DNA from: a virus
Reading direction: 5' to 3' (one strand)
IMG/VR virus record: IMGVR_UViG_3300045988_021623
Span: 1-42,484 of that record
Length of the DNA stretch: 42,484 nt
Part shown: one piece after another, positions 2,943 through 22,570 of the stretch
Numbering within the stretch: the first letter of the stretch is position 1
Layout: each line of letters begins with the position of its first letter
The notes under the pieces: generated by a model
What the model saw: only the letters and a program-made list of their open reading frames with translations
Databases searched by the model: none
What the model was told of the DNA's origin: nothing
Position numbers and translations under genes: made by a program

Positions 2943-3236
2943 TTACTCCATCATCTTTGCGCCGCAGTTGGGGCAGTAGTTTGTGCGCGCGCAAAAGTTA
3001 TCTGATTTCCCGCACTCGCTACAATGGCACCAATCAATGCCACCATTAACCCTGCACCCATCGTGAATCCACCGCCCATGCACCACCGGCACAACGTCAG
3101 CGGCGGGGATCGCCTTTATATCGGCGCAGATATTCCAAGCTACCGTGTCACCACAAAAATCACTTTTCCGCAGACACTCTCTATACTGTTTATCACAAAC
3201 GGTAACTGCCACTGCGCGCTCAATGTATTCAGCCAT
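2943..3236 (-). CDS. Hypothetical zinc-ribbon protein
   Basis: Internal ATG at 3236 gives MAEYIERAV... and overlaps the stop of the upstream ORF. The C-terminus has CHCSECG...CPNCG. Confidence 0.55.
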   Translation of the reverse strand: MAEYIERAVAVTVCDKQYRECLRKSDFCGDTVAWNICADIKAIPAADVVPVVHGRWIHDGCRVNGGIDWCHCSECGKSDNFCARTNYCPNCGAKMME

Positions 3237-3405
3237 TGTCAGCCCTCCTGTTCCACTTTTCGACGATAAATTTGGGCTCGCTATATACGCCACTTTCAAA
3301 ATCACACTCTGGGCAGTATATGTAGCACTCTTCTGAGCTGTTGCCATCTACTGTTTCAAGTATTGCTTCACCGCCGCAGAACGGGCAAGGTTTCAATTCA
3401 GCCAT
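3229..3405 (-). CDS. Lar-family restriction-alleviation-like zinc-ribbon protein (58 aa)
   Basis: The product is MAELKPCPFCGGEAILETVDGNSSEECYIYCPECDFESGVYSEPKFIVEKWNRRADNG. The LKPCPFCGG...C.EC pattern is typical of the Lar family. The ORF is not in the ORF track because it is under 60 aa. Confidence 0.5.
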   Translation of the reverse strand: MAELKPCPFCGGEAILETVDGNSSEECYIYCPECDFESGVYSEPKFIVEKWNRRADNG

Positions 3406-3759
3406 TCACTCCACCTCCTGACCCCAAAACTCGCGGCGGCAGTCAGAACACTCGCGTTGCATAGTTGCGCAGTTACCTCGGGCATTCCTGTGCGACGCAG
3501 AAATCGAGCAGGGATTTATCTGCAACATACCATCATCCCCGATGCGTGCCTCCGGGTACTGTTCCAAAAACACGCTCTGCCGCGTCTTGTGTGGGTGCTC
3601 CTTCGACCACTGCTCAACGGCAGCAATGATTTTCTCGTACTCTGCATCGGGTGCGCTGGTGCCAAGGCCACATCCAACTCTTTCAAGTGGGCAGCCCTTG
3701 CAATGCTTGCATAAGTTGCACATTCTCTTGCGCTCTCTCAAAAATTCTAACGCGTCCAT
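3406..3759 (-). CDS. Hypothetical Cys-rich protein
   Basis: 117-aa ORF containing CNLCKHCKGC and CSDC motifs. Confidence 0.55.
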   Translation of the reverse strand: MDALEFLRERKRMCNLCKHCKGCPLERVGCGLGTSAPDAEYEKIIAAVEQWSKEHPHKTRQSVFLEQYPEARIGDDGMLQINPCSISASHRNARGNCATMQRECSDCRREFWGQEVE

Positions 3760-4395
3760 TTATGCCTCCATTCTATCGATCACTTTTCGAATCACATCGC
3801 CGCCGTAAGCGTCTTTTGTCAACTCCAAAAACTCCGTAAGTGTCATCACGCCGCGCTCAAGATCAACACCGTGGTCACGGGCGAACTGCTTTCGCCCCAT
3901 GTCACATGAGCCAGTCAAGCGGTGATGCCAGTCGTAAAAATGCTGTGTCGGATATGCTTTCTCGCGGTCTGTTTCTCGCAAAAACGTGTCGATGCGTTCT
4001 TCTTCCGGCATATCCTCGAAAAGCTTGTCTCGCAACGCCTCCATTGCTTCGCGCAGCGTTTCGCCGTGTGCGAAAATGTCGCCCTGCTTGACAATGTAGC
4101 ACGACGTGAGCATCAAATCGCCGTTCAAGATTGCCCCGTGCGCAGTGTTGCCGCGCACGGAACGAATCAGCGTATTTACGCCGTCAATTTGATAGACAGT
4201 TTCCCTGTTGAAACTCTTAACTCCGTCGCCGTAGCCGGAGCCGTAGCCGTCGCCGTAGCCGTAGCCGGAGCCGTAGCCGTAGCCGGAGCCGTCGCCGGAG
4301 CCGTCGCCGTCGCCGGAACCGTCGCCGGAGCCGTCGCCGTCGCCGGAGCCGGAGCTTACAAGCAAAAAGGCTTTAATCCTATCGTCAAGCGTCAT
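3760..4395 (-). CDS. Hypothetical protein with an N-terminal G-[S/D/Y] low-complexity repeat
   Basis: ATG at 4395 overlaps the upstream stop (ATGA). Product has SGSGDGDGSGDGSGDGDGSGDGSGYGYGSGYGYGDGYGSGYGDG followed by a globular domain (AHGETLREA...WHHRLTGSCDMGRKQF). Confidence 0.6.
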   Translation of the reverse strand: MTLDDRIKAFLLVSSGSGDGDGSGDGSGDGDGSGDGSGYGYGSGYGYGDGYGSGYGDGVKSFNRETVYQIDGVNTLIRSVRGNTAHGAILNGDLMLTSCYIVKQGDIFAHGETLREAMEALRDKLFEDMPEEERIDTFLRETDREKAYPTQHFYDWHHRLTGSCDMGRKQFARDHGVDLERGVMTLTEFLELTKDAYGGDVIRKVIDRMEA

Positions 4396-4730: not shown

Positions 4731-5396
4731 TTATTTCCGTTGATATCCGCCCCACTGCTCCGCCATTGCTCTGGCGATGCCGGGGAAGGTCTTTGCGCGG
4801 TTTTTGGCTCTATCTGTGGTAAACATGCCTTTGTGCTGTTCCCCATGTTTATGGCTATAACTGCCGCTCGGGCACCATGTTGCCGTCGGCTCAACGATGT
4901 TTGTCGGCTCCAGCGGTGGGAGATTTCTCAACCATAAGCACGTTCTTTTAGTGTACGGATGTCCAAATTGATATGGCTGGATAATTTGCGAGTATTCCGG
5001 CATTACAAAAAGCTTGCTCGGTACAGGATTCTCAACCGCCACAAGCGGTATATCGGCACGATAAAACTCCATGAAGAAGTCACGTGCCTTTATTCCAAGC
5101 ATTACCCTGTCCGCTTGCAGTTGATGCCCTTTCCACAAGTGCCGAGCGCCTGCATTGCTGAGATATGTGCACGGCGGGTGTGCGATCAGCAAATCCCAAG
5201 TAACAATATGCGTTGCGCCGTCCATTGTGGTAATAAGCCCGGGCCTATTGACAACATCCACGGCATCGTCCAGAATATGCCACTCAGTGTGCCCGCCGGA
5301 CGGCTCCTGAATGTCGCACGAGTAGGCTTCATGCCCAAATGCGCGGAACGCTTTGCAGACTTCCTGCGATTCCTCGCAGGCAACTAAAACCGTCAT
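4731..5396 (-). CDS. Short phage-type DNA cytosine-C5 methyltransferase-like protein
   Basis: Internal ATG at 5396 overlaps the upstream stop. Product MTVLVACEESQEV... has HPPCTYLSNAG (PPC, motif IV), VENPV (ENV-like, motif VI) and RAKTFPGIARAMAEQW (motif X-like). There is no canonical FxGxG motif I. Confidence 0.5.
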   Translation of the reverse strand: MTVLVACEESQEVCKAFRAFGHEAYSCDIQEPSGGHTEWHILDDAVDVVNRPGLITTMDGATHIVTWDLLIAHPPCTYLSNAGARHLWKGHQLQADRVMLGIKARDFFMEFYRADIPLVAVENPVPSKLFVMPEYSQIIQPYQFGHPYTKRTCLWLRNLPPLEPTNIVEPTATWCPSGSYSHKHGEQHKGMFTTDRAKNRAKTFPGIARAMAEQWGGYQRK

Positions 5397-5638
5397 CTTC
5401 TCCCCTCGCATTCTCCAAACAGCTCCCGGAACGGCTTCCCCGTGATCTCTTCCAACTTGAGCAGGAATTTCACGGTGCACTCGCAGTCGCCGAACGTCCA
5501 CCGAATGATGGTCGACTGCGCCACGCCGCATTCTTTCGCCAGCTGGATCTGCGACAAGTCCGTCTTTTCCAGCGCTTCTTTTAGCGCCGGATAGACGCAG
5601 CGCTCGAACGGTGTCTTTGCCCGATGCACTCTCAGCAT
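5393..5638 (-). CDS. HTH DNA-binding protein (paralog B)
   Basis: Contains YPALKEALEKTDLSQIQLAKECGVAQSTIIRWTFG. It is clearly similar to the upstream ORF 5632..5874. Confidence 0.6.
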   Translation of the reverse strand: MLRVHRAKTPFERCVYPALKEALEKTDLSQIQLAKECGVAQSTIIRWTFGDCECTVKFLLKLEEITGKPFRELFGECEGRR

Positions 5639-14884: not shown

Positions 14885-15277
14885 ATGAACATTCAAGAAG
14901 TGTGTAGAATCCGTAAAGAAGAATTGAAACTGACCTATCAGGACATTTCCGATGCTTCCGGCGTACCACTGTCCACCGTGCAGAATTTCTTTTCCAAGTT
15001 TTCTAAATCTCCGTCGATCTACACCGTCGCGCCAATCTGCAAAGCGCTTGGAATATCCCTTGATGAGGTGTTCGGGATTTCCGAACACTTGACGCCGACC
15101 GAAGAAACTTTGCAAGCGCGGAATGATGAGCTGGAACGACACGTTGACGCGAAAGCGGACATGATTGAGATCATGCGGCGTGGAGTGCGTATCCGCAACG
15201 GCGTGATTGCTATAATGTTTGCCATTATCGTTCTGCTGGCCGCGTGGTGCTTGTACATTGATTGGAGGGGGATTTGA
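14885..15277 (+). CDS. XRE-family HTH protein with C-terminal transmembrane anchor
   Basis: Contains LTYQDISDASGVPLSTVQNFFSK...ICKALGISLDEVFG, then a coiled coil, then the TM segment VIAIMFAIIVLLAAWCLYI. Its stop overlaps the integrase start. Confidence 0.7.
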   Translation: MNIQEVCRIRKEELKLTYQDISDASGVPLSTVQNFFSKFSKSPSIYTVAPICKALGISLDEVFGISEHLTPTEETLQARNDELERHVDAKADMIEIMRRGVRIRNGVIAIMFAIIVLLAAWCLYIDWRGI

Positions 15278-16290
15278 TGAAGATACCGAAAGCAAAACTA
15301 CTACCGTCCGGCAACTGGAATGTCAGCGTCATGGTAGACGGAAAGCGCGTGTCCGTTACAGCGCCTGCCAAAAGGCAAGCGGAGAATGAAGCTGCCGCGT
15401 TAAAGTCCGGCGCAAAGTCTGCCGCTCGTGCGTCTGAGCGCACGGTTGGTGATGCTATCGACCGATATATTGACAGCAAGGACGCAATACTCTCCCCCTC
15501 CACCGTCAACGGTTACAGAAAACTCCGCAAGGTGGTTTTCCCGGAGCTGATGAGCGTTAAGTGCTCCGCGTTGACGCAGGATCGCGTGCAGCGTGCCGTG
15601 AATAAGATGGCACGGGAAAAGTCCCCTAAGTACGTCCGCAACGCTTACGGCTTATTTACGGCGGCAATATCGGAGGAATGCCCGGATAAAGTGTTCCGTG
15701 TATCTTTGCCGCAAAAGGAAGCGCCTAAAATCAAAATCCCTACCATGGACGAGATCAGAATTCTACACGAAGACTGCAAGGGCGCAGACTTTGAATTGCC
15801 TTTCCTGCTGGCCGTCTGGCTCGGCCTCCGTACATCGGAGATCAGAGGTCTAACATGGGATTGTCTTGACGGTGATATCCTGACGATCAAGCAAGCAATG
15901 GTAGACGGCGAAGACGGTCCGCAGCTCAAGCAGCCAAAAACCTACAGCGGCAACAGAAAACTAAAAGTGCCGCCGTATATTATGGGGCTGCTTGACGCAA
16001 CACCGCGAACAGATGAGTATATTGTCCACGCAACCAGAAATGTCCTGTATAAGCATCTGCAACGCGCGTGTGCCCGCTGCGGAGTTCAGCCGTTCCGCTT
16101 TCACGACCTCCGCCATGTAAACGCATCGGTTATGCTCAGGCTCAATGTCCCCGATAAATACGCAATGGAGCGCATGGGGCACTCTACAAACAACATGCTT
16201 AAAAACGTATATCAGCACACCATGGATGATAAAGCCGTAGCAGTGGCAGATGCCGTTGACGGCTTTTTTGAATCCGAATTTCATCTGTAA
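15277..16290 (+). CDS. int: Tyrosine integrase
   Basis: ATG at 15277 follows GGAGGGGGA. LGLRTSEIRGLTW, HDLRHVNASVML and MGHSTNNMLKNVYQH correspond to the R...HxxR...Y catalytic pattern. Confidence 0.9.
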   Translation: MKIPKAKLLPSGNWNVSVMVDGKRVSVTAPAKRQAENEAAALKSGAKSAARASERTVGDAIDRYIDSKDAILSPSTVNGYRKLRKVVFPELMSVKCSALTQDRVQRAVNKMAREKSPKYVRNAYGLFTAAISEECPDKVFRVSLPQKEAPKIKIPTMDEIRILHEDCKGADFELPFLLAVWLGLRTSEIRGLTWDCLDGDILTIKQAMVDGEDGPQLKQPKTYSGNRKLKVPPYIMGLLDATPRTDEYIVHATRNVLYKHLQRACARCGVQPFRFHDLRHVNASVMLRLNVPDKYAMERMGHSTNNMLKNVYQHTMDDKAVAVADAVDGFFESEFHL

Positions 16291-16313
16291 TTCCATCTGC
16301 AATTCATCTGCAA
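16281..16313 (+). repeat. Arm-type repeat cluster (3 tandem copies)
   Basis: TTCATCTGTAA-TTCCATCTGCAA-TTCATCTGCAA. Confidence 0.6.
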
Positions 16314-16402
16314 AACCGATATTTTTGACGCACTTAATTTGCAAATATCGCAAGTAATGTGCAAACAGGTAACCCCGAAAACCCTTGCAAATACAAGAAA
16401 AA

Positions 16403-16433
16403 CCCCGCAGTCGTTGAAACTGCGAGGTTTTTT
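16403..16433. terminator. Bidirectional hairpin terminator after int
   Basis: CCCCGCAGT (16403-16411) pairs with ACTGCGAGG (16419-16427) with one mismatch. It is followed by TTTTTT on the plus strand and preceded by an A-run, which gives a T-run on the minus strand. Confidence 0.65.
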
Positions 16434-16436
16434 CAT

Positions 16437-16464
16437 TGGTGGAGGCGGCGGGAGTCGAACCCAC
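16437..16464 (-). other. 3'-terminal fragment resembling tmRNA (ssrA) or tRNA-Ala (T-arm, acceptor 3' strand and ACCA); candidate attP core
   Basis: The minus strand reads GTGGG-TTCGACT-CCCGC-CGCCTCC-ACCA, and U70 is compatible with G3:U70. No complementary 5' acceptor strand lies within 100 nt, so it is a fragment and not a gene. Confidence 0.55.
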
Positions 16465-16510
16465 AACCGAAACCGCAAAAACATTGATATTGCAAGGTTT
16501 TTTGAACACC

Positions 16511-16531
16511 GTCTGCAATTCCATCTGCAAT
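16511..16531 (+). repeat. Arm-type repeat cluster (distal side)
   Basis: GTCTGCAA-TTCCATCTGCAA. The TTCCATCTGCAA copy is identical to the one at 16291-16302. Confidence 0.6.
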
Positions 16532-16852
16532 TTATTTTTCGAGCTTTCGCATGACGCTGTTGTATACGCGCTCGTTTACAATTTTCAAACTGTCCATCAG
16601 CTCGTCCATGATCTCCCACGCCTTGTCCGGTGGAACATCTGCCACTGAGCGCAGAAAGTCGCTATCGCCGTATGTTTCAACGTTGACCGGCGCGGGCGCT
16701 GCGGAATATGCCATCGGCAAAGCCCTCTCTCTGCTGCCGCTTTGCTGGTCACGGATGGCATACAGCACGGCAAGGCGCTCATAGTTTGTCCAGCTTGATT
16801 CCTCCGTTTCAAGGCGAGCTATCCAGCGTTTGACCTCATTCTCGTCGACCAT
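16532..16852 (-). CDS. Hypothetical protein (island gene 8)
   Basis: 106-aa ORF with ATG 7 nt after AAGGGGGTG. Contains ...GDSDFLRSVADVPPDKAWEIMDELMDSLKIVNERVYNSVMRKL. Confidence 0.6.
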   Translation of the reverse strand: MVDENEVKRWIARLETEESSWTNYERLAVLYAIRDQQSGSRERALPMAYSAAPAPVNVETYGDSDFLRSVADVPPDKAWEIMDELMDSLKIVNERVYNSVMRKLEK

Positions 16853-16867
16853 AGGGGCGCACCCCCT

Positions 16868-17275
16868 TTAGCCATCAATCGTGTCCATGCAGCGCTGAAT
16901 GGCTCTGCGGATGCTTTCGTCATCGGCGTTGTCCAGCATTTCCTGCAACTGGCGTTTCATGCTGTCCATGCTTCCGTCGCGGGAATAGTGTCCGCGTACA
17001 TAATGCGTGCCGCGTCTCGCGTTGGACATATCACGGTCATAAGCGCCGCGCATACCCGACTGCCAGTCTCCGTCGCGGGAATAGCGGCGAGAATAGTCCT
17101 CATCGCGGGAATAGCCGTCGTCCTCCAACATCTCGATTTTATCGATGTTTTTGATGGTGTCCGTCAGCTTGTGCGCAATTTCGAGGTCGCCCGCGCCAAG
17201 CTCGCCCTTACGGGCCAGCTCGTCGAGTTCGTCGCACAGCATATTGCGCAGATCATACATTGCTTTCTTGCTCAT
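16868..17275 (-). CDS. Hypothetical protein rich in R/D/Y/S repeats (island gene 7)
   Basis: ATG at 17275 follows GAAAGGAGAA. Contains DDGYSRDEDYSRRYSRDGDW...HYVRGHYSRDGS. Confidence 0.6.
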   Translation of the reverse strand: MSKKAMYDLRNMLCDELDELARKGELGAGDLEIAHKLTDTIKNIDKIEMLEDDGYSRDEDYSRRYSRDGDWQSGMRGAYDRDMSNARRGTHYVRGHYSRDGSMDSMKRQLQEMLDNADDESIRRAIQRCMDTIDG

Positions 17276-17288
17276 GTCCATTCTCCTT

Positions 17289-17711
17289 TCACGCGATTCT
17301 CTCAACCGTCAGATTCGAGTTAGCGAAGTTGACGGCCTGAGTGCTGGTGTTTTCCATTGCGACCGTCAAGCAGCAGCCTTTCGGAACGCAGACCTGTGCG
17401 GAAACATAAATGTTAAAGTAGTTTTCTACCGCCGCAGGCGTGACAGTCGCCGTTGCACTGGTCAACGGCTCTCCGTTGATGGCAAGCGCCGCCGTGATGG
17501 CCTCGACCGTGCCTCCGGTGGGAATAGCGATGTTGCCGCCATAGGAGACCCTAAACAGAGCGCGATTTTGATTGGTGAGGCCGCGAAGCGTGACAACGCC
17601 TGCGCCCTGACGATGCACGATACAGGGCTTGCTATTGACCGCCGTTTCAGTCAGGGGAACGTTCTGTCCAGCAGCAACGGTCTGAATTGCCGCAGAAGTA
17701 AATTCTGCCAT
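17289..17711 (-). CDS. BclA-C-terminal/C1q-TNF-like jelly-roll protein candidate (island gene 6)
   Basis: ATG at 17711 follows GAAAGGAA. The all-beta pattern QNVPLTETAVN...GVVTLRG...LFRVSYGGNIA...LAINGEPL...VAMENTS...NLTVERIA has the same layout as BclA C-terminal domains. Confidence 0.4.
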   Translation of the reverse strand: MAEFTSAAIQTVAAGQNVPLTETAVNSKPCIVHRQGAGVVTLRGLTNQNRALFRVSYGGNIAIPTGGTVEAITAALAINGEPLTSATATVTPAAVENYFNIYVSAQVCVPKGCCLTVAMENTSTQAVNFANSNLTVERIA

Positions 17712-17834
17712 TAAAATCATTCCTTTCTCAGTTAAAATACAGCGGCAGGGCTATTGCCCCGCCGCGTTGTTGTCAGTATCGGCACGGGGCCGACCATTTT
17801 CCCCATGTGGGGAAAAAGCTATGCTATGCAGTTG

Positions 17835-18560
17835 TCAGCAGCCGCAAGCGGAACCACAGCCGCCGTAGCCGCTACCCGCCCACGGGTTACAGGTAATGTA
17901 AGCCGGGGAAGGGCACGGGCGAAGCTGCGAAATGAGGTAGTTATTCTGTGCAGCCTGAGACGCAGCCAGCTTGAGATTCTGGTTCTCGGTCTGAAGATCG
18001 GACAGCTTGCTCTGCGTGAGGAAGTCGAGGATGGCACGGCTGTTCTGGTTGTTCGCGTCAATGATGTCGCGGGCTGCCGTGTTGACCGTGTTGCGCGTGT
18101 CGCACGCCTGCGTCGCCATATCATAGCGCACCTGCGCGATAGCCGCGCGATTCTCGCAGCAGCAATTTGCGGCCTGCATCTGCATGGCGTTGAGCTGCTG
18201 CATCAGAGCCGCCTGCTGGTTGCTGCGGGAAAGCTCGGCATTGCCGAAGCCGGTGTTGATGGCCTGTGTGGTCGCAGCAAAGCCGCCAGTAATGGCATTG
18301 TTCAACGCAAAGGTGGAATCGCAAATGCCATTTGCAATACTGTCGAGCTTGCGCTCAACGCTCGCAAAGTCAGATGTCAGAACGTAGCCGTCCATCACAC
18401 CGCCGCCGTTACCGTTGCCAAATCCGTTGCGGCCCCAGCCGAAGAGGAAAAGAACGATAATCCAGATCCAGTTGTCGCCCCACATGCCCATACCGCCGCC
18501 GTAATTGTTCGCGGGCGCGACCGGCATAGTCATCATGGGAGCCCCGTCGGAAAGAGACAT
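17835..18560 (-). CDS. Gly-rich membrane protein with Q/N-rich helical region and Cys-rich C-terminus (island gene 5)
   Basis: ATG at 18560 follows GAAAGGAGAG. Has NYGGGMGMWGDNWIWIIVLFLFGWGRNGFGNGNGGG (TM segment), ANCCCENR, and a C-terminal CPSPAYITCNPWAGSGYGGCGSACGC. Confidence 0.6.
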   Translation of the reverse strand: MSLSDGAPMMTMPVAPANNYGGGMGMWGDNWIWIIVLFLFGWGRNGFGNGNGGGVMDGYVLTSDFASVERKLDSIANGICDSTFALNNAITGGFAATTQAINTGFGNAELSRSNQQAALMQQLNAMQMQAANCCCENRAAIAQVRYDMATQACDTRNTVNTAARDIIDANNQNSRAILDFLTQSKLSDLQTENQNLKLAASQAAQNNYLISQLRPCPSPAYITCNPWAGSGYGGCGSACGC

Positions 18561-18611
18561 ATTATCTCTCCTTTCATAAATTTTATTTATCAAATCGTGG
18601 CCACGATAAGA

Positions 18612-18836
18612 TCAATGGAATAAATGCTCGAACTGTTTTGCCATAGATTGAAGTTGGTTTAACTCCTGCTGGCTCATCGCGCCAGATTGCAGGAGCTTAT
18701 TGACTTCTTCTTTCGGGTTCCCCTGAAAGCCGCTTTGGAACTGTTGGAATTTCTGCTTGAGCTGCATCAGCTCACCCATCGGCCCCGGCATCTGCCCGCC
18801 GCCGAGAGCACCGAAAAACGGATTAGTCATCGTCAT
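18612..18836 (-). CDS. Small G/Q-rich protein (island gene 4)
   Basis: 74 aa: MTMTNPFFGALGGGQMPGPMGELMQLKQKFQQFQSGFQG... Confidence 0.5.
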   Translation of the reverse strand: MTMTNPFFGALGGGQMPGPMGELMQLKQKFQQFQSGFQGNPKEEVNKLLQSGAMSQQELNQLQSMAKQFEHLFH

Positions 18837-19272
18837 CGTCCTCGTCCTCCTCGACCTTGCGTTTCTTTTTGCCCTTTATTTCGCCCACAAGCGCCGCCAG
18901 ACGGTCGAACTCCTCGCGGGTGACAAATTCCACGCCCTTTTCCTGCGGAGCCGTGCGGGGCGTTTCTGCGCGCTCTACAAGGTCGTAAATCTTGAGCGTC
19001 GGCTTGCCGCTTGCATCCGCTTGCTTGAGATACACAGTCGGCGCGGTAGAATCCCACAGCGCCACAGCGGAGTTGGGCGCGATGAGATAGCCCCTTGCCT
19101 CCTGCTCGCCGCTTACCCACTGCACGCCGCCCTGCGCGATGGGGTTCTGTTGCACTGGCTGCGACATAGGCTGCTGCATGGGCTGCATCTGTGGCTGCTG
19201 CATCTGCCGCATCTGCATGAGGTTGTCCGGCATTGGCTGCGGGTAATAGGGGTTGAAATAGGGATATGCCAT
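18823..19272 (-). CDS. P/Q/Y-rich N-terminus, globular domain and poly-acidic tail protein (island gene 3)
   Basis: ATG at 19272 lies 6 nt after GGAGGA. MAYPYFNPYYPQPMPDNLMQMRQMQQPQMQPMQQP...KKKRKVEEDEDDDDD. Confidence 0.6.
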   Translation of the reverse strand: MAYPYFNPYYPQPMPDNLMQMRQMQQPQMQPMQQPMSQPVQQNPIAQGGVQWVSGEQEARGYLIAPNSAVALWDSTAPTVYLKQADASGKPTLKIYDLVERAETPRTAPQEKGVEFVTREEFDRLAALVGEIKGKKKRKVEEDEDDDDD

Positions 19273-19274
19273 GT

Positions 19275-19658
19275 TCATTCCTCCGTTTCTTTGACCCAGT
19301 AATAAAGCGGGATTTCGTTCTCGCTGTTCCAACTGTCATAGATCACGCCGTCTTGCACGCACACTACATGGCCAGAGAGCGCGAGAATATATGTCCCGCG
19401 CGGGTGGTCATCGGCGAACTTACCGACCGTGTAGCAGTCCGGGTAAGTGTCCGGCATGATGTATCTCCGGTAGCCTAAAGACCGCAGATACACGCCCCAA
19501 CAAGCGTTTGCGTTGGGGAGGTCACCGTCCAAATACCCCTGTATGCAGAGGGCAAAATAGACCTCGCCCCAGTCTTTCCCGGTCGCCTTGCAGATCGCGC
19601 GCACAGTGCAGTCCGACACGTTGTGCCCTGCGGGATTGGGATTGAAATAGCTATACAT
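19275..19658 (-). CDS. Papain-like (C39-like) cysteine peptidase candidate (island gene 2)
   Basis: ATG at 19658 overlaps the stop of the 40-aa ORF. Candidate Cys-His-Asp triad: GHNVSDCTVRAICKATGKDWG, then LSGHVVCV and YDSW. Confidence 0.4.
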   Translation of the reverse strand: MYSYFNPNPAGHNVSDCTVRAICKATGKDWGEVYFALCIQGYLDGDLPNANACWGVYLRSLGYRRYIMPDTYPDCYTVGKFADDHPRGTYILALSGHVVCVQDGVIYDSWNSENEIPLYYWVKETEE

Positions 19659-19773
19659 GGAAAAGCTCCGCGAAATAGACATAAGTGCGCAACTCGTCAG
19701 GGTCAGGGAACAGCGTCAAAATGTCCATTGCCATTTGCTCCGTAAAACCCAAAGCTAAAAGTCGGTCGTACAT
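19651..19773 (-). CDS. Small protein (40 aa, island gene 1)
   Basis: The product is MYDRLLALGFTEQMAMDILTLFPDPDELRTYVYFAELFHV. The ATG follows GAAAGAAGGTG. It is not in the ORF track. Confidence 0.4.
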   Translation of the reverse strand: MYDRLLALGFTEQMAMDILTLFPDPDELRTYVYFAELFHV

Positions 19774-19830
19774 TTTGCGCACCTTCTTTCTTATTCTGTT
19801 TTTATGATGCCATAAAAGGCTGGCCTTGAA

Positions 19831-19869
19831 TGGTCAGCCTTTGGTCATCGTTTGGTCATTATTTGGTCA
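19831..19869. repeat. Four direct TGGTCA repeats phased at exactly 11 bp
   Basis: TGGTCA occurs at 19831, 19842, 19853 and 19864. The last three copies extend to TTTGGTCA. Confidence 0.85.
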
Positions 19870-19889: not shown

Positions 19890-19918
19890 TTGACATTACG
19901 CTAATATTAGCGTATAAT
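19890..19918 (+). promoter_or_regulatory. Consensus sigma-70/SigA promoter with embedded palindromic operator
   Basis: TTGACA (19890-95), 17-nt spacer, TATAAT (19913-18). The 18-bp perfect palindrome TACGCTAATATTAGCGTA (19897-19914) fills the spacer. Confidence 0.75.
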
Positions 19919-19958: not shown

Positions 19959-20228
19959 ATGAAGGGTACTGAGAAGCAGATCGCGTGGGCCGAAGAACTG
20001 AAAGCGAAGTCCATCGCCGCATTGGAGTGGATGAGAGAGAACCCAAGTGACCCAGGTAAGGCAAACATCGAAATGTGGAACAAGGGGATTGACTTCCAGA
20101 TCGGCCGCATTAACTCCGTAGAATATGCCGGCAAGCTGATTGATGTTCTTCGTTTTGTGAATTTTAACGGCACCCCGGAGCAGGTCGGCATGGCCGTGGT
20201 GTCCCAGACTAACCGCTATCTGAAATAA
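19959..20228 (+). CDS. Hypothetical protein (moron gene 1)
   Basis: AAGGAGG RBS; 89 aa; MKGTEKQIAWAEELKAKSIAALEWMRENP... Confidence 0.6.
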   Translation: MKGTEKQIAWAEELKAKSIAALEWMRENPSDPGKANIEMWNKGIDFQIGRINSVEYAGKLIDVLRFVNFNGTPEQVGMAVVSQTNRYLK

Positions 20229-20241
20229 GGAGGAAAGAACA

Positions 20242-20436
20242 ATGGAGAAAGAGGAATTGATCCGGAAATTGGGACAGGCCCCCGGCAAAAACTTTGTGGA
20301 AGACGGTTATTTTTACGGCTACGCGCTCATCAAGCGGGCAACCGGAGAAGAAACGACCGCCATTGTCAGGAAACCCGTCGGCGCGAAATATCGGGAGTAC
20401 GAGGTGCTTTACTACGCGCCGGAAATCGAACTCTGA
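20242..20436 (+). CDS. Hypothetical protein (moron gene 2)
   Basis: AAGGAGGAAAG RBS; 64 aa. Confidence 0.55.
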   Translation: MEKEELIRKLGQAPGKNFVEDGYFYGYALIKRATGEETTAIVRKPVGAKYREYEVLYYAPEIEL

Positions 20437-20449
20437 GGGAGGGCAACTG

Positions 20450-20731
20450 ATGCGCAGGAAATATGCAGACTGCCAGCGAGAAGACGGAGATTGCACCGCC
20501 TGCTCCTTGGTCAACTGCGGACGCGACTGCCACAACCGCGCGATATCAAAATTAGAATGGTCGCGCCGCATGGCCGAGATGACGCAAGCCAACCTCGCCG
20601 AGAAATCCGGCGTGAATATCCGCCAAATCCAGCGAGTGGAGCTGGGAGAATCCGACGCCGGGAATCTGACGGCCAGAAACCTGATCGCCATTGCCGACGT
20701 GCTCGGCGTAGATGCAAAATCTTTGTTATAA
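20450..20731 (+). CDS. XRE-family HTH regulator with N-terminal Cys cluster (moron gene 3)
   Basis: ATG at 20450 follows GAGGGAGGG. Contains CQREDGDCTACSLVNCGRDCHNR, then MTQANLAEKSGVNIRQIQRVELGE...LIAIADVLGV. Confidence 0.7.
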   Translation: MRRKYADCQREDGDCTACSLVNCGRDCHNRAISKLEWSRRMAEMTQANLAEKSGVNIRQIQRVELGESDAGNLTARNLIAIADVLGVDAKSLL

Positions 20732-20747
20732 CAGGGGAGCGGAGCAA

Positions 20748-20939
20748 ATGAGCAGTTTTTTTATCGCAAGCAAAACCCAAGCGGAAACTATCCTTGAAGA
20801 ATTTGAAAAATGCCGTGGCTGCGGGAATTGCGGCCTGAATACCGCCGAAGGATGGAAATGCAGTTACCTCGCGGAATGTGCCAGAGAATACCTGGAAAGG
20901 CACCGCAACGAGGAAAAACAAAAAGAGAGCACCGATTAA
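20748..20939 (+). CDS. Small Cys-rich protein (moron gene 4)
   Basis: ATG at 20748 follows GGGGAGCGGAG. Contains CRGCGNCG...C...C. Confidence 0.5.
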   Translation: MSSFFIASKTQAETILEEFEKCRGCGNCGLNTAEGWKCSYLAECAREYLERHRNEEKQKESTD

Positions 20940-20955
20940 ACTCGGTGCTCTCTTT
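20922..20955. terminator. Bidirectional hairpin terminator at convergent gene ends
   Basis: AAAGAGAGCACCGA (20922-35), loop TTAAAC, TCGGTGCTCTCTTT (20942-55). This is a perfect 14-bp stem flanked by A and T runs. Confidence 0.7.
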
Positions 20956-21181
20956 GCCCGTCTGCTATTTTTTGATATGCCCGCCTGCGGCAGCGGTTGA
21001 CTGCCTCCGGCGACAGGTGCAGTGCCTCGCACACTTGCGCGTAGCTCTTGCGCCGCACGTCGCACTCGATGATACACGCCGCCTCGTCCGCTGGCAGCTC
21101 AAACGATAAGATATACGCCACAGCCCGTTTCGGGGCCATAGAGGATAATTGCGCGCGGATTGACCTGTGCTGACTGTTCAT
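20936..21181 (-). CDS. Sigma-70 region-4-like small HTH protein
   Basis: Internal ATG at 21181. The sequence LSFELPADEAACIIECDVRRKSYAQVCEALHLSPEAVNRCRRRAYQKI matches the region-4 pattern LP..e......sy.eiae.L.is..tV...r.RA..kL. Confidence 0.5.
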   Translation of the reverse strand: MNSQHRSIRAQLSSMAPKRAVAYILSFELPADEAACIIECDVRRKSYAQVCEALHLSPEAVNRCRRRAYQKIADGQREHRV

Positions 21182-21258: not shown

Positions 21259-21876
21259 TTATTTTGTCGCTCTCTGGATCATCGTCACGACTTCCTGTCG
21301 CGTGATAAGTCTCTGCGGCGAGCTGCCGTCCGTGATGCCCGCCGCCTTTGCCGCCGCCCAGTCCTTCGCCGCCCACGAAGAAACGGGCTTGGTGCCGAGC
21401 TGCGCCAAATAGGTATCCATCATCTTGTTAAAAGTCACCTGATCCATGTACTCCTCCATTTCCGGCGGGTAGTGCCCCGTCAAAATCGAACTCCCTCCGT
21501 ATCTCCCATGATCGTCCCACTGGAAGTGGGGCTTGTCCGGAAATTTCTTCCAGTCCCCGCCCCACGAAAAGCCGACCTGTTTTCCAATCTGCCCGCAGCG
21601 GGCGAAGAACGACGGATCGTCGTACTCATGCCCCTTGACGTTTTTGCAGATATCAAACGCCAGCCCAGCCTTGACGCTGTGGAACGTCGGCCTTGTCGCG
21701 GTTTTTGCCGCGTAGCCCATGCGCGCAAGATAGCGCTGATACTCGTCGTCCCGCACCGTTTCCGTTACCAGAACCGGAAGCCCCGCCTCCTTGCAGAGGT
21801 CGAGGAAGATGACGCAGTTTCGCCGCACGTCCGCCCGCAGGTCGGCAATGTCCCTACTGTGATACATCGCTGTCAC
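21259..21876 (-). CDS. Endolysin, peptidase M15 (VanY/L-Ala-D-Glu peptidase-like)
   Basis: Contains VTETVRDDEYQRYL, PTFHSVKAGLAFDI and SWGGDWKKFPDKPHFQW. The gene follows the holins. Confidence 0.75.
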   Translation of the reverse strand: MTAMYHSRDIADLRADVRRNCVIFLDLCKEAGLPVLVTETVRDDEYQRYLARMGYAAKTATRPTFHSVKAGLAFDICKNVKGHEYDDPSFFARCGQIGKQVGFSWGGDWKKFPDKPHFQWDDHGRYGGSSILTGHYPPEMEEYMDQVTFNKMMDTYLAQLGTKPVSSWAAKDWAAAKAAGITDGSSPQRLITRQEVVTMIQRATK

Positions 21877-22075
21877 CCTTGCTGTCGATCACGTCCTGCG
21901 CCTTCTGGCTCTGCGTGCCGAAGTAAAATGCGATGATGACCGCATAGATCGTCATGAAGTCCTGCGAAATGTTCCCCGTGACGGCCATGTACGCAAATAC
22001 TCCCGTCAGCACCAGCGTCACGATGCTCTTGACGCTCAAAAGGTTTGCGATACGCTTGATGATTCTTTCGTTCAT
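21854..22075 (-). CDS. Holin candidate (two TM segments)
   Basis: ATG at 22075. Contains SIVTLVLTGVFAYMAV and FMTIYAVIIAFYFG, with a charged C-terminus. Confidence 0.6.
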   Translation of the reverse strand: MNERIIKRIANLLSVKSIVTLVLTGVFAYMAVTGNISQDFMTIYAVIIAFYFGTQSQKAQDVIDSKGDSDVSQ

Positions 22076-22076
22076 G

Positions 22077-22271
22077 TTATTCGTCCTTTCCTTTGATTTT
22101 GATTCCCGCCAGCAGGCCAAGCTCCGCCGTCCATGCGGCGAACCATGCGACCGTCAGGCTGTCCGGCACGGTCTTGTTAAATGCTGTCAGGATCAGCGCC
22201 GCAATGCAGTACCAGCAAAGGTTGAGCACTGCCGCGATGACGTACTTGTCCCGCTTTCTCAGTTTCTTCAT
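22077..22271 (-). CDS. Small membrane protein (holin-associated)
   Basis: ATG at 22271 overlaps the upstream stop (ATGA). Product MKKLRKRDKYVIAAVLNLCWYCIAALILTAF...AWFAAWTAELGLLAGI. Confidence 0.5.
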   Translation of the reverse strand: MKKLRKRDKYVIAAVLNLCWYCIAALILTAFNKTVPDSLTVAWFAAWTAELGLLAGIKIKGKDE

Positions 22272-22570
22272 AAGGCAACACCCGACAGCAGCCACGCGAT
22301 AAACGCGCCCGCCAGCGCCGCGAGAGCCTTGTCGACCAGACCGTCCCACCGCTTCCCTGCCTTTCCAGTGATGGCTTTCACATCCTCTTTGATCTCCTTG
22401 ACATCGCCCTCCACAGTCTCCTGCTTCGTGGCCAGCACTTCGACCGAAGTCGCCAGCCTGTCAAGCGCCGTTTGGTGCTCCTGTAACTCGTTGATTCGGT
22501 GGGTATTGCTTTTGCATCGGCTTTCGATCAGTGCGATCGCCGCGTCATCGTAGTGCTTTGCATTATCCAT
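22268..22570 (-). CDS. XhlA-like lysis-associated membrane protein
   Basis: Coiled-coil N-terminus plus a C-terminal TM segment KALAALAGAFIAWLL. This is the XhlA architecture and the position is next to the holins. Confidence 0.5.
   Translation of the reverse strand: MDNAKHYDDAAIALIESRCKSNTHRINELQEHQTALDRLATSVEVLATKQETVEGDVKEIKEDVKAITGKAGKRWDGLVDKALAALAGAFIAWLLSGVAL

Follow-up and report, generated by a model that had tools for sequence, protein, structure and literature searches.

A conserved cassette of eight small genes and a putative regulator has a core that recurs in unrelated tailed viruses of gut anaerobes

Introduction

The complete 42,484-bp viral contig IMGVR_UViG_3300045988_021623 of IMG/VR (the window) has the look of a temperate siphovirus, with most of its genes on the minus strand. 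Between its lysis genes and its phage attachment site (attP) lies a run of eight small minus-strand genes at positions 16532-19773, which we name g1 to g8, and a ninth small gene, sig4, is found upstream of them. The locus raises two questions: do these genes belong together, and what do they do? An initial annotation, made from the sequence alone, took g1-g8 as cargo in the classical lysogenic-conversion slot, and proposed from the composition of the products either a phage-borne module that alters the spore or cell surface or a peptidase-processed polymer that is secreted or assembled. To the first question we give a confident answer: g1-g8 and sig4 are very probably a single self-contained unit, a cassette transferred horizontally between tailed viruses of gut anaerobes. 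It fits no known system. To the second question our answer is tentative, with a probability of roughly 0.3: the products would assemble with g5 as their anchor, be matured by a protease and act late in infection on the cell membrane, either as an accessory of egress or lysis or in membrane remodelling.

The cassette is among the commoner unexplained gene sets of the gut virome, with hundreds of IMG/VR contigs carrying it. It crosses phyla and, according to the host labels of the databases, domains, keeping fixed roles while swapping non-homologous parts. Solving its job would provide a function for six or more "unknown" PHROG families at once, and might reveal a new mechanism of late infection or of self-protection used by phages in anaerobes.

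Results

Gene order is fixed in the close relatives

All eight open reading frames (ORFs) are present in the window, with every motif quoted in the initial annotation. The genes are co-oriented and tightly packed, with gaps from g1 to g8 of -8, -1, -14, +51, +123, +13 and +15 nucleotides, and each one has a GGAGG-type ribosome-binding site (RBS) ahead of it, as the annotation described. The slot was also placed correctly, with the endolysin and holins on one side and a tRNA fragment and the integrase on the other (coordinates in Table 1).

Co-conservation of the neighbourhood, a check suggested with the annotation, was found wherever we looked for it in the close lineage. Genes g2-g8 are collinear in 15 of 15 loci from bacterial or metagenome-assembled genomes, mostly Oscillospiraceae, as well as in all 80 of the IMG/VR loci fetched with g5, and the order sig4-(g1)-g2...g8 is common to about 95 related contigs. 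This conservation of gene order is far beyond chance. Across the 80 IMG/VR loci, the mean amino acid identity per gene ranges from 64% for sig4, at the bottom, to 81% for g6, the most conserved protein of the cassette. The edges are looser, with g1 detected in 48 of the 80 relatives and g8 present in 66.

One relative shows the cassette in a different genomic frame. A prophage in a 117.6-kb bacterial contig from a metagenome (L191, 12030-18201) encodes a g5 identical to that of the window and matches it in the lengths of g1-g8, and its end has another junction or attachment site, without the tRNA fragment. An identical g5 at a different prophage junction implies that the cassette rides on phages with different integration modules. 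Genes for HtrA and a two-component system are present in the host flank, together with one for a SpoIID-domain protein about 5 kb past the prophage end; from the latter, the host of this phage may itself be a spore former.

The same roles recur in unrelated viruses

We defined the roles of the cassette with hidden Markov models (HMMs) and de novo clustering over 95 diverse loci. The recurring roles are a small helix-turn-helix (HTH) regulator of the sigma-70 region 4 (r4) type, a P/Q-rich protein that contains a small beta domain, a protein of about 75 residues rich in M and Q, the predicted membrane protein g5, a small beta protein, a helical R/Y/D/S-rich protein, and a small peptidase. These roles are often filled by non-homologous proteins, and g5 is always present. 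The peptidase role is taken by the papain-like g2 or, elsewhere, by a protein with an HExxH motif; the recurrence of this role in two unrelated folds points to proteolysis as one element of the cassette's mechanism.

The genomic positions are diverse. The cassette lies 3' of lysis genes in the lineage of the window (downstream of the endolysin), in bajarodcaudo virus 5 (after a holin and a lysin) and in the Clostridium perfringens phage PMQ04 (downstream of an amidase and a holin), and in three crAss-like phages, which represent two families, it lies within the holin/lysin block or next to it. In a large group of phages it has the minor capsid gene on one side and the scaffold/major capsid genes on the other. 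Other sites are after the tail fibres and after the integrase; the cultured Vescimonas fastidiosa MM35 has it at a prophage end, and the plaque-isolated Bacteroides uniformis phage C3_41T2LP has it among recombination genes. These last two, with several C. perfringens phages, are the cultured carriers. Relatives of g5 are also found in viruses recorded with Methanomassiliicoccales as their host, and the hosts that are recorded or named are all obligate anaerobes. None of the 68 annotated features of PMQ04 is an integrase, which indicates that the cassette is not simply lysogenic-conversion cargo. The slot beside attP thus stands as proposed for the window, and a purely conversion-related content does not, since the core is also found in this integrase-less phage and in head-morphogenesis modules.

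To quantify the association with lysis we took about 30 dereplicated loci and collected the ORFs that lie upstream of the cassette at a distance of up to 3.5 kb. They include about eight peptidoglycan hydrolases (two CHAP, ELLD, DUF5675, Amidase_3, GH25, NlpC/P60 and C39_2), one holin and three minor capsid proteins. By a rough estimate, a hydrolase is expected in about 9% of random 3.5-kb stretches of a 40-kb genome, and the observed number is about three-fold enriched. The cassette is enriched beside lysis genes, not universally so. The crAss-like copies also have in-frame recoded TAG codons, as in the g5-like gene of the crAss-like phage cr52_1 (gp23; L019, 3674-4597), where two in-frame TAG need read-through, as expected if late genes use stop-codon recoding. 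In-frame TAG recoding has been reported as enriched in late and lysis genes (PMC10136315).

Database searches add few names. No product of g1-g8 has a significant match in Pfam or NCBIfam, and all nine proteins, sig4 included, have zero matches to the PADLOC defence models at E<=1. In PHROGs, six products match strongly, g7 more weakly, and g1 and g8 marginally, and every family involved is one of unknown function. Searches of PDB with sequence profiles return nothing for g2, g3 and g6, and for g5 only sub-threshold matches of a coiled-coil type. The best 120 matches listed in searches of large protein collections are near-identical hypothetical proteins that add no names or domains, and a literature search on the PHROG numbers, DUF7841 and phage C3_41T2LP found nothing. 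The statement that none of the products belongs to a virion, lysis, replication or defence family agrees with these searches (Pfam, PHROGs, NCBIfam and PADLOC).

g5 is the core of the cassette

The g5 protein matches phrog_16490 (E 2e-37), and its layout is kept across phyla. A short net-acidic leader is followed by 13-18 residues rich in W/I/L/F between Gly/Asn runs, and then by a Q/N-rich helical region of about 170 residues with several conserved Cys, an invariant CCC, a P-x-PAY motif and a Cys/Gly/Tyr/Asn tail. The Cys count is 10-16, the invariant CCC included. The family is large and falls into 1576 clusters when grouped at 50% identity, and into 7992 or more when grouped at 90%; among the best 150 listed, nearly all are stand-alone proteins of about 100-310 residues, mainly 200-300. 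A hydrophobic-segment analysis identifies the N-proximal segment as the only one in g5, which has no C-terminal anchor. None of the other cassette products has a lipobox, a hydrophobic N-terminus or a signal peptide.

The closest analogues by layout are spanins and class I fusion proteins. When the g5 profile is compared to PDB, coronavirus S2 HR1 (E 0.007) and influenza HA2 residues 20-94 (E about 0.04-0.06) appear below threshold, a resemblance by which we explain the "spike protein" labels that depositors have given to relatives of g5. As in those proteins, a Gly-rich hydrophobic segment precedes long Cys-containing helical regions; g5 is also often near lysis genes, has a protease encoded alongside, and has relatives with the "spike protein" label. 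It differs from them in having no significant match (E 0.007-0.06) and neither a partner lipoprotein nor a C-terminal anchor, and the hosts of the window's phage lineage are Bacillota. The layout is comparable to that of an i-spanin, with an N-terminal hydrophobic segment and a helical region, the topology of g5 being predicted from charge counts, and there is no match to a spanin family. We rejected the identification of g5 as a spanin because no cassette gene encodes a lipoprotein partner with a lipobox, and because crAss-like phages carry a separate LysB/FtsL-like gene.

The proposed partners of g5

The g2 protein (phrog_3754, E 2.6e-33) has C17, H97 and D108 invariant across 42 homologues. 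In its AlphaFold model (predicted local distance difference test score, pLDDT, of 85), C17 opens helix 16-26 and H97 is at the start of strand 98-102. The closest PDB folds found by Foldseek are weak matches, to Josephin-2 (E 0.07, probability 0.77), AvrPphB and Tae4 (E 0.07-0.4). Amongst the viral structures of BFVD, the same fold appears in 22 uncharacterised phage proteins from many hosts (E<1e-3). Because the three residues are invariant, the model has a papain-like arrangement and the fold recurs in phage proteins, g2 looks like a papain-fold candidate hydrolase, whose chemistry may be that of a peptidase, an amidase or a transglutaminase. It shares with the papain-like cysteine hydrolases (C39, Josephin, AvrPphB/C58, NlpC/P60, transglutaminases) the canonical Cys-His-Asp order, a Cys at the N-terminus of a helix and a His on the following sheet, and it differs from them in its minimal length of 127 residues, its weak fold scores and the lack of a Pfam match. 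The papain/C39-like peptidase of the initial annotation thus survives in part: the invariant residues and the position of the Cys are in its favour, and g2 has neither a Pfam match, Peptidase_C39 included, nor a PDB sequence match. Relatives of g2 are found in many phages without the cassette.

The g6 protein (phrog_20016, E 1e-53) has 4912 homologues. Its AlphaFold model, built with 37 homologues, is an all-beta jelly roll (pLDDT 75), and the best Foldseek matches in PDB are ExsFA, BxpB, the C-terminal domains of BclA and F-BclA, TNF and C1q, with E about 1e-4 and TM-scores of 0.6-0.7 (entries 7r1m, 9h3d, 9h38, 8d02, 3tyj and 2z5w; at most 0.69). No Pfam profile for BclA_C or a related family matches at E<=1, nor does the g6 family profile find a PDB sequence. 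The modelled g6 is BclA/C1q-like at the level of the fold, without belonging to the sequence family, and to that extent the structural class guessed for this 140-residue protein from sequence was right. Compared to the Bacillus exosporium proteins (the BclA C-terminal domain, ExsFA/BxpB, F-BclA), g6 has the same TNF/C1q-type jelly roll at about 140 residues and is likewise made without a signal peptide; it lacks their collagen-like or anchoring N-terminal region, its structural alignments reach 10-16% identity, it is also encoded by phages of hosts that form no spores, and it can be replaced by other small beta proteins. In many cassettes its role is filled by unrelated small beta proteins, either of a type with an N-terminal CxxC or of a crAss type. 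A link between the type of g5 tail and the type of beta protein was sought by eye, and none was seen.

The remaining products are small and of biased composition. The g3 protein (phrog_21718, E 5e-33) has a P/Q/Y-rich N-terminus, a conserved small beta domain, a short coil, and KKKRK followed by an acidic tail, and its family is also present in distant types of cassette. For g4 (phrog_22984, E 3e-19), positional equivalents in distant cassettes form one family (f3). In g7 (phrog_28802, E 1e-9) an R/D/Y/S-rich disordered stretch lies between helical ends, and its equivalents elsewhere are G7, f19, DUF7841 or ferritin-like proteins with R/Y-rich tails. An HMM of g8 finds a match in the C. perfringens phage PMQ04 (E 1.2e-7). 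Some variants have instead of g7/g8 a ferritin-like helical protein (family f13, about 16 loci; examples in Table 1). Over helices A-B, the f13 profile matches PDB ferritins with E 1.2e-4. R/Y-rich tails are present in several members, and the ferritin metal ligands, read by eye, are not conserved across the family.

Regulation and transcription signals

The sig4 protein has matches to Pfam Sigma70_r4_2 (E 3.3e-7) and NCBIfam sigma70-ECF (E 2e-4). It is immediately upstream of the cassette in 67 of the 80 relatives, and in distant cassette types small r4-like HTH genes (f14 and f70) occupy its place. On sequence grounds, sig4 is probably the regulator of the cassette. The sigma-region-4 gene noted earlier just upstream is thus real as a family assignment and as a neighbour in most relatives; in the window itself, an insert of about 1 kb on the plus strand separates it from g1.

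Terminator-like hairpins lie on both sides of the cassette, and a -10-like element upstream of it predicts a promoter from sequence (Table 1). The relatives without the insert have a hairpin and T-run between sig4 and g1, then a TATnAT-like element 15-20 nucleotides before the RBS of g1, and no -35 box. In the variant found in head modules a terminator-like hairpin is also present ahead of g3.

The hairpins noted initially at 17721-17834, between g5 and g6, turned out to be a conserved element of terminator type. Its hairpins 2 and 3 have compensatory changes; one position, for example, pairs as GC in 24 sequences, as AU in 12 and as CG in 1. No Rfam family matches the element. A covariance model built from it finds it only behind g5, in this lineage and in its nearest relatives (the Vescimonas prophage L101 and Dulem virus 33, L002). 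Since a conserved terminator-like element follows g5, differential expression within the operon, as the annotation had suggested, is reasonable. We rejected a 21-codon ORF within the element, which is broken by 1-nucleotide indels in relatives. In about one third of the close relatives (L007, L008, L009, L012, L021, L023, L025 and others), an extra ORF of about 70 residues (MKTVDELKQEF...) lies between the hairpin element and g6; it is absent in the window.

Discussion

Our preferred reading, held tentatively at the 0.3 given above, places g5 at the centre of the cassette. Because g5 alone has a hydrophobic segment and the other products have neither a signal peptide nor a lipobox, the partners would meet g5 in the cytoplasm or at the inner face of the membrane. 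There, on the cytoplasmic side, g5 would most likely gather the soluble partners into a Cys-rich, low-complexity complex matured by the protease. The cassette would be its own transcription unit, preceded by a terminator, with a -10-only promoter before g1, an attenuator after g5 and a terminator after g8, and the r4 protein encoded at the end of the lysis operon would probably switch it on. Within the late lytic programme, the complex would act at the cell membrane and not on spores. The conservation and mobility of the cassette, the late-gene contexts, the recoded TAG codons of the crAss-like copies, the membrane anchor, the recurrent peptidase, the transcription signals and the weak likeness of g5 to fusion proteins are all consistent with such a late membrane role.

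Several observations weigh against this reading. No product has homology to a holin, a spanin or another lysis protein in Pfam, PHROGs or NCBIfam, and the topology of g5 is based on charge counts alone. The matches of g5 to S2 and HA2 are not significant and are not evidence of homology. The link to lysis fails for the cassettes in head modules, after the integrase and among recombination genes, and where it holds it is confounded, because accessory genes in general tend to land where a late operon ends. An outer-membrane step is unnecessary in monoderm hosts, and the crAss-like phages have a separate FtsL/LysB-like candidate beside the cassette. Finally, the predicted arrangement of terminator, promoter and terminator is the classical layout of a moron, and it fits expression from the prophage equally well.

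A stronger form of the membrane reading, in which g5 is a fusogen or disruptor like the class I fusion proteins, is quite unlikely in our estimate. The cassette peptidase would cut the leader of g5 and so expose its Gly-rich segment, a TNF-like trimer would cap it, the low-complexity proteins would provide a matrix, and the whole would be a portable machine for egress or membrane fusion that viruses exchange across their hosts: those of Bacillota, Bacteroidota and methanogenic archaea.

The close rival to the late membrane assembly, and one that we also regard as doubtful, is an autonomous moron-type cassette, expressed in the prophage as well, that protects the cell, whether infected or lysogenic, through superinfection exclusion, through defence at the membrane, or through tolerance to a stress common to gut anaerobes, such as oxygen or metals. 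Like phage morons and lysogenic-conversion cassettes, this one has predicted autonomous signals by attP, an optional accessory status and varied insertion sites. The site at the prophage end, the predicted terminators and promoter and the small regulator of its own, and the insertions at many genome positions are all as a moron would have them. A role in tolerance would suit the obligate anaerobes that are its hosts, the Cys-rich g5 with its 10-16 Cys and invariant CCC, and the variants with a ferritin-like protein (PDB ferritins, E 1.2e-4), but the ferritin metal ligands are not conserved. A role in defence has zero PADLOC matches to go with it. The exclusion and defence morons that are known, moreover, mostly comprise a single gene or a pair that evolves quickly; here six to eight co-conserved genes form a rigid cassette, whose carriers include integrase-less and crAss-like phages. 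We consider it unlikely that the cassette belongs to the virion, with g5 as an ejection or pilot protein that inserts into membranes and that g4 keeps soluble, g6 as a trimeric decoration or knob, and g2 maturing them. A large phage group does carry the cassette between minor capsid and scaffold/major capsid genes, the orientation is that of the structural genes nearly everywhere, depositors have labelled g5-like genes of crAss-like and Bacteroides phages "spike protein" and "outer capsid protein/viral fiber", and TNF-like jelly rolls are common viral knobs. However, a single add-on would have to suit the particles of siphoviruses, crAss-like phages and archaeal viruses alike; the cassette keeps its own regulator and terminators even inside the head module; g6 is the most conserved protein, unlike receptor-binding knobs; and no product matches a virion family in Pfam or PHROGs.

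The two functions proposed in the initial annotation fare worse. Remodelling of the coat or exosporium of spores in a spore-forming host is now very improbable; it keeps a small probability for the lineage of the window, and it cannot be the general function of the cassette. The structural matches of g6 to exosporium ExsFA/BxpB and BclA do point that way, as do the coat-like compositions, the soluble products without export signals, like mother-cell coat proteins, the small regulator of r4/GerE-like type, the SpoIID gene on the host contig of the prophage with the identical g5, and the presence of the core in C. perfringens phages. Spore coats are known for low-complexity proteins and enzymes such as GerQ, CotG, Tgl and YabG. 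In the cassette, likewise, genes for proteins rich in Q/P, in R/S/Y and in Cys accompany those for a small enzyme of papain fold and an HTH protein of GerE size, but the likeness is one of composition, without family matches (none to Pfam BclA_C, GerQ, Cot or Tgl) and not restricted to spore formers. The core is found in Bacteroides and crAss-like phages, in viruses assigned to Methanomassiliicoccales and in the Vescimonas prophage, which carries a g6-bearing cassette, so that even this version is not confined to known spore formers; in many other cassettes unrelated small beta proteins stand in for g6. Sporulation is absent from Bacteroides and from the hosts of crAss-like phages, and V. fastidiosa, going by its species description, is reportedly also non-spore-forming. 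The type species of the genus Vescimonas has been reported as non-spore-forming (PMC11334427). A spore-coat role is unlikely because the core recurs in phages of such hosts.

Least probable of all is a secreted product, bacteriocin-like or polymeric, for which g2 would cleave the leader of g4 or g5 before export. The C39-like arrangement of Cys, His and Asp in g2, the Gly-Gly motifs near the N-termini of g4 and g5, the Cys/Gly-rich tail of g5, and the AgrB-like genes that adjoin two variants can be cited for it. Against these, the cassette has no transporter, immunity or modification genes, g2 has no Peptidase_C39 match and a fold widespread in phages without the cassette, and the supposed precursors are 74-250 residues long with conserved folded regions. 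The double-glycine bacteriocin reading was rejected for its lack of a transporter and of a C39 match.

Other features of the locus

The plus-strand insert between sig4 and g1 is present in only 11 of the 80 relatives. Its own promoter, at 19890-19918, is a perfect TTGACA-17-TATAAT. Four TGACCA(A/T) repeats with an 11-bp spacing lie at about 19826-19868 and co-occur with the insert. As they travel with the plus-strand HTH insert, we rejected them as an operator of the cassette upstream of g1.

Opposite-strand genes of the homing-endonuclease type lie exactly between g4 and g5 in two relatives, and this junction looks like an insertion hot spot. In two relatives that are large phages a membrane protein similar to AgrB (Pfam AgrB, best E 1.5e-6) is encoded just upstream of the cassette (L142, 4081-5106; L175, 4004-5213), and the gene after it encodes a membrane protein with an apparent r4-like HTH at its C-terminus.

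Table 1. Coordinates and properties of the cassette genes, the signals around them and related features in other contigs.
Feature	Contig	Position	Strand	Description
sig4	window	20936-21181	-	81 aa; sigma-70 region-4-type HTH and nothing else
g1	window	19651-19773	-	40 aa, acidic; stop overlaps g2 start
g2	window	19275-19658	-	127 aa; start codon as used by most relatives; DCTVRAI, GHVV, DSW
g3	window	18823-19278	-	P/Q-rich; C-terminal end KKKRKVEEDEDDDDD
g4	window	18612-18836	-	74 aa; Gln 18%; GALGGG; Gln/Met/Gly-rich, helical
g5	window	17835-18560	-	241 aa; Gly-flanked hydrophobic segment, CCC motif, tail CNPWAGSGYGGCGSACGC
g6	window	17289-17711	-	140 aa, all-beta
g7	window	16868-17275	-	R/D/Y/S-rich
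g8	window	16532-16852	-	106 aa; pI 4.7; acidic, helical
Lysis block	window	21259-22570		M15 endolysin, two holin-like ORFs, XhlA-like ORF
M15 endolysin	window	21259-21876		
Terminator-like hairpin	window	20922-20955		bidirectional; ending the lysis-sig4 transcript
Insert between sig4 and g1	window	19959-20939 (genes)	+	about 1 kb; three or four small genes, one HTH_3
g1 leader	window	19774-19830	-	putative promoter: -10-like element and RBS, without a -35 box
Three-hairpin element	window	17731-17837	-	directly 3' of g5 stop; last hairpin and U-run terminator/attenuator-like
Terminator-like hairpin	window	16398-16432		ending the cassette, just before the attP core
attP core	window	16439-16471	-	32-nt tRNA 3' fragment GGTTGTGGGTTCGACTCCCGCCGCCTCCACCA
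Tyrosine integrase	window	15262-16290	+	
Endonuclease at g4/g5 junction	L002 (Dulem virus 33)	5046-5597	-	annotated "endonuclease"
ORF at g4/g5 junction	L004	~3040-4075	-	303 aa, unannotated; AP2/HNH-like by eye
Ferritin-like variant	L106	6341-7120		
Ferritin-like variant	L001	7648-8175		
Ferritin-like variant	L020	7386-8384		

In the attP region (16283-16535), direct repeats of the TGCAATTCCATCTGCAATT type at about 16283-16312 and about 16510-16535 flank the tRNA fragment, and are likely arm sites of the integrase. At the far end of the window a tRNA-Ile with anticodon AAT lies on the minus strand at 340-414 (ARAGORN; 57 bits with the Rfam tRNA model). AAT is an unusual anticodon for a tRNA-Ile of bacterial type.

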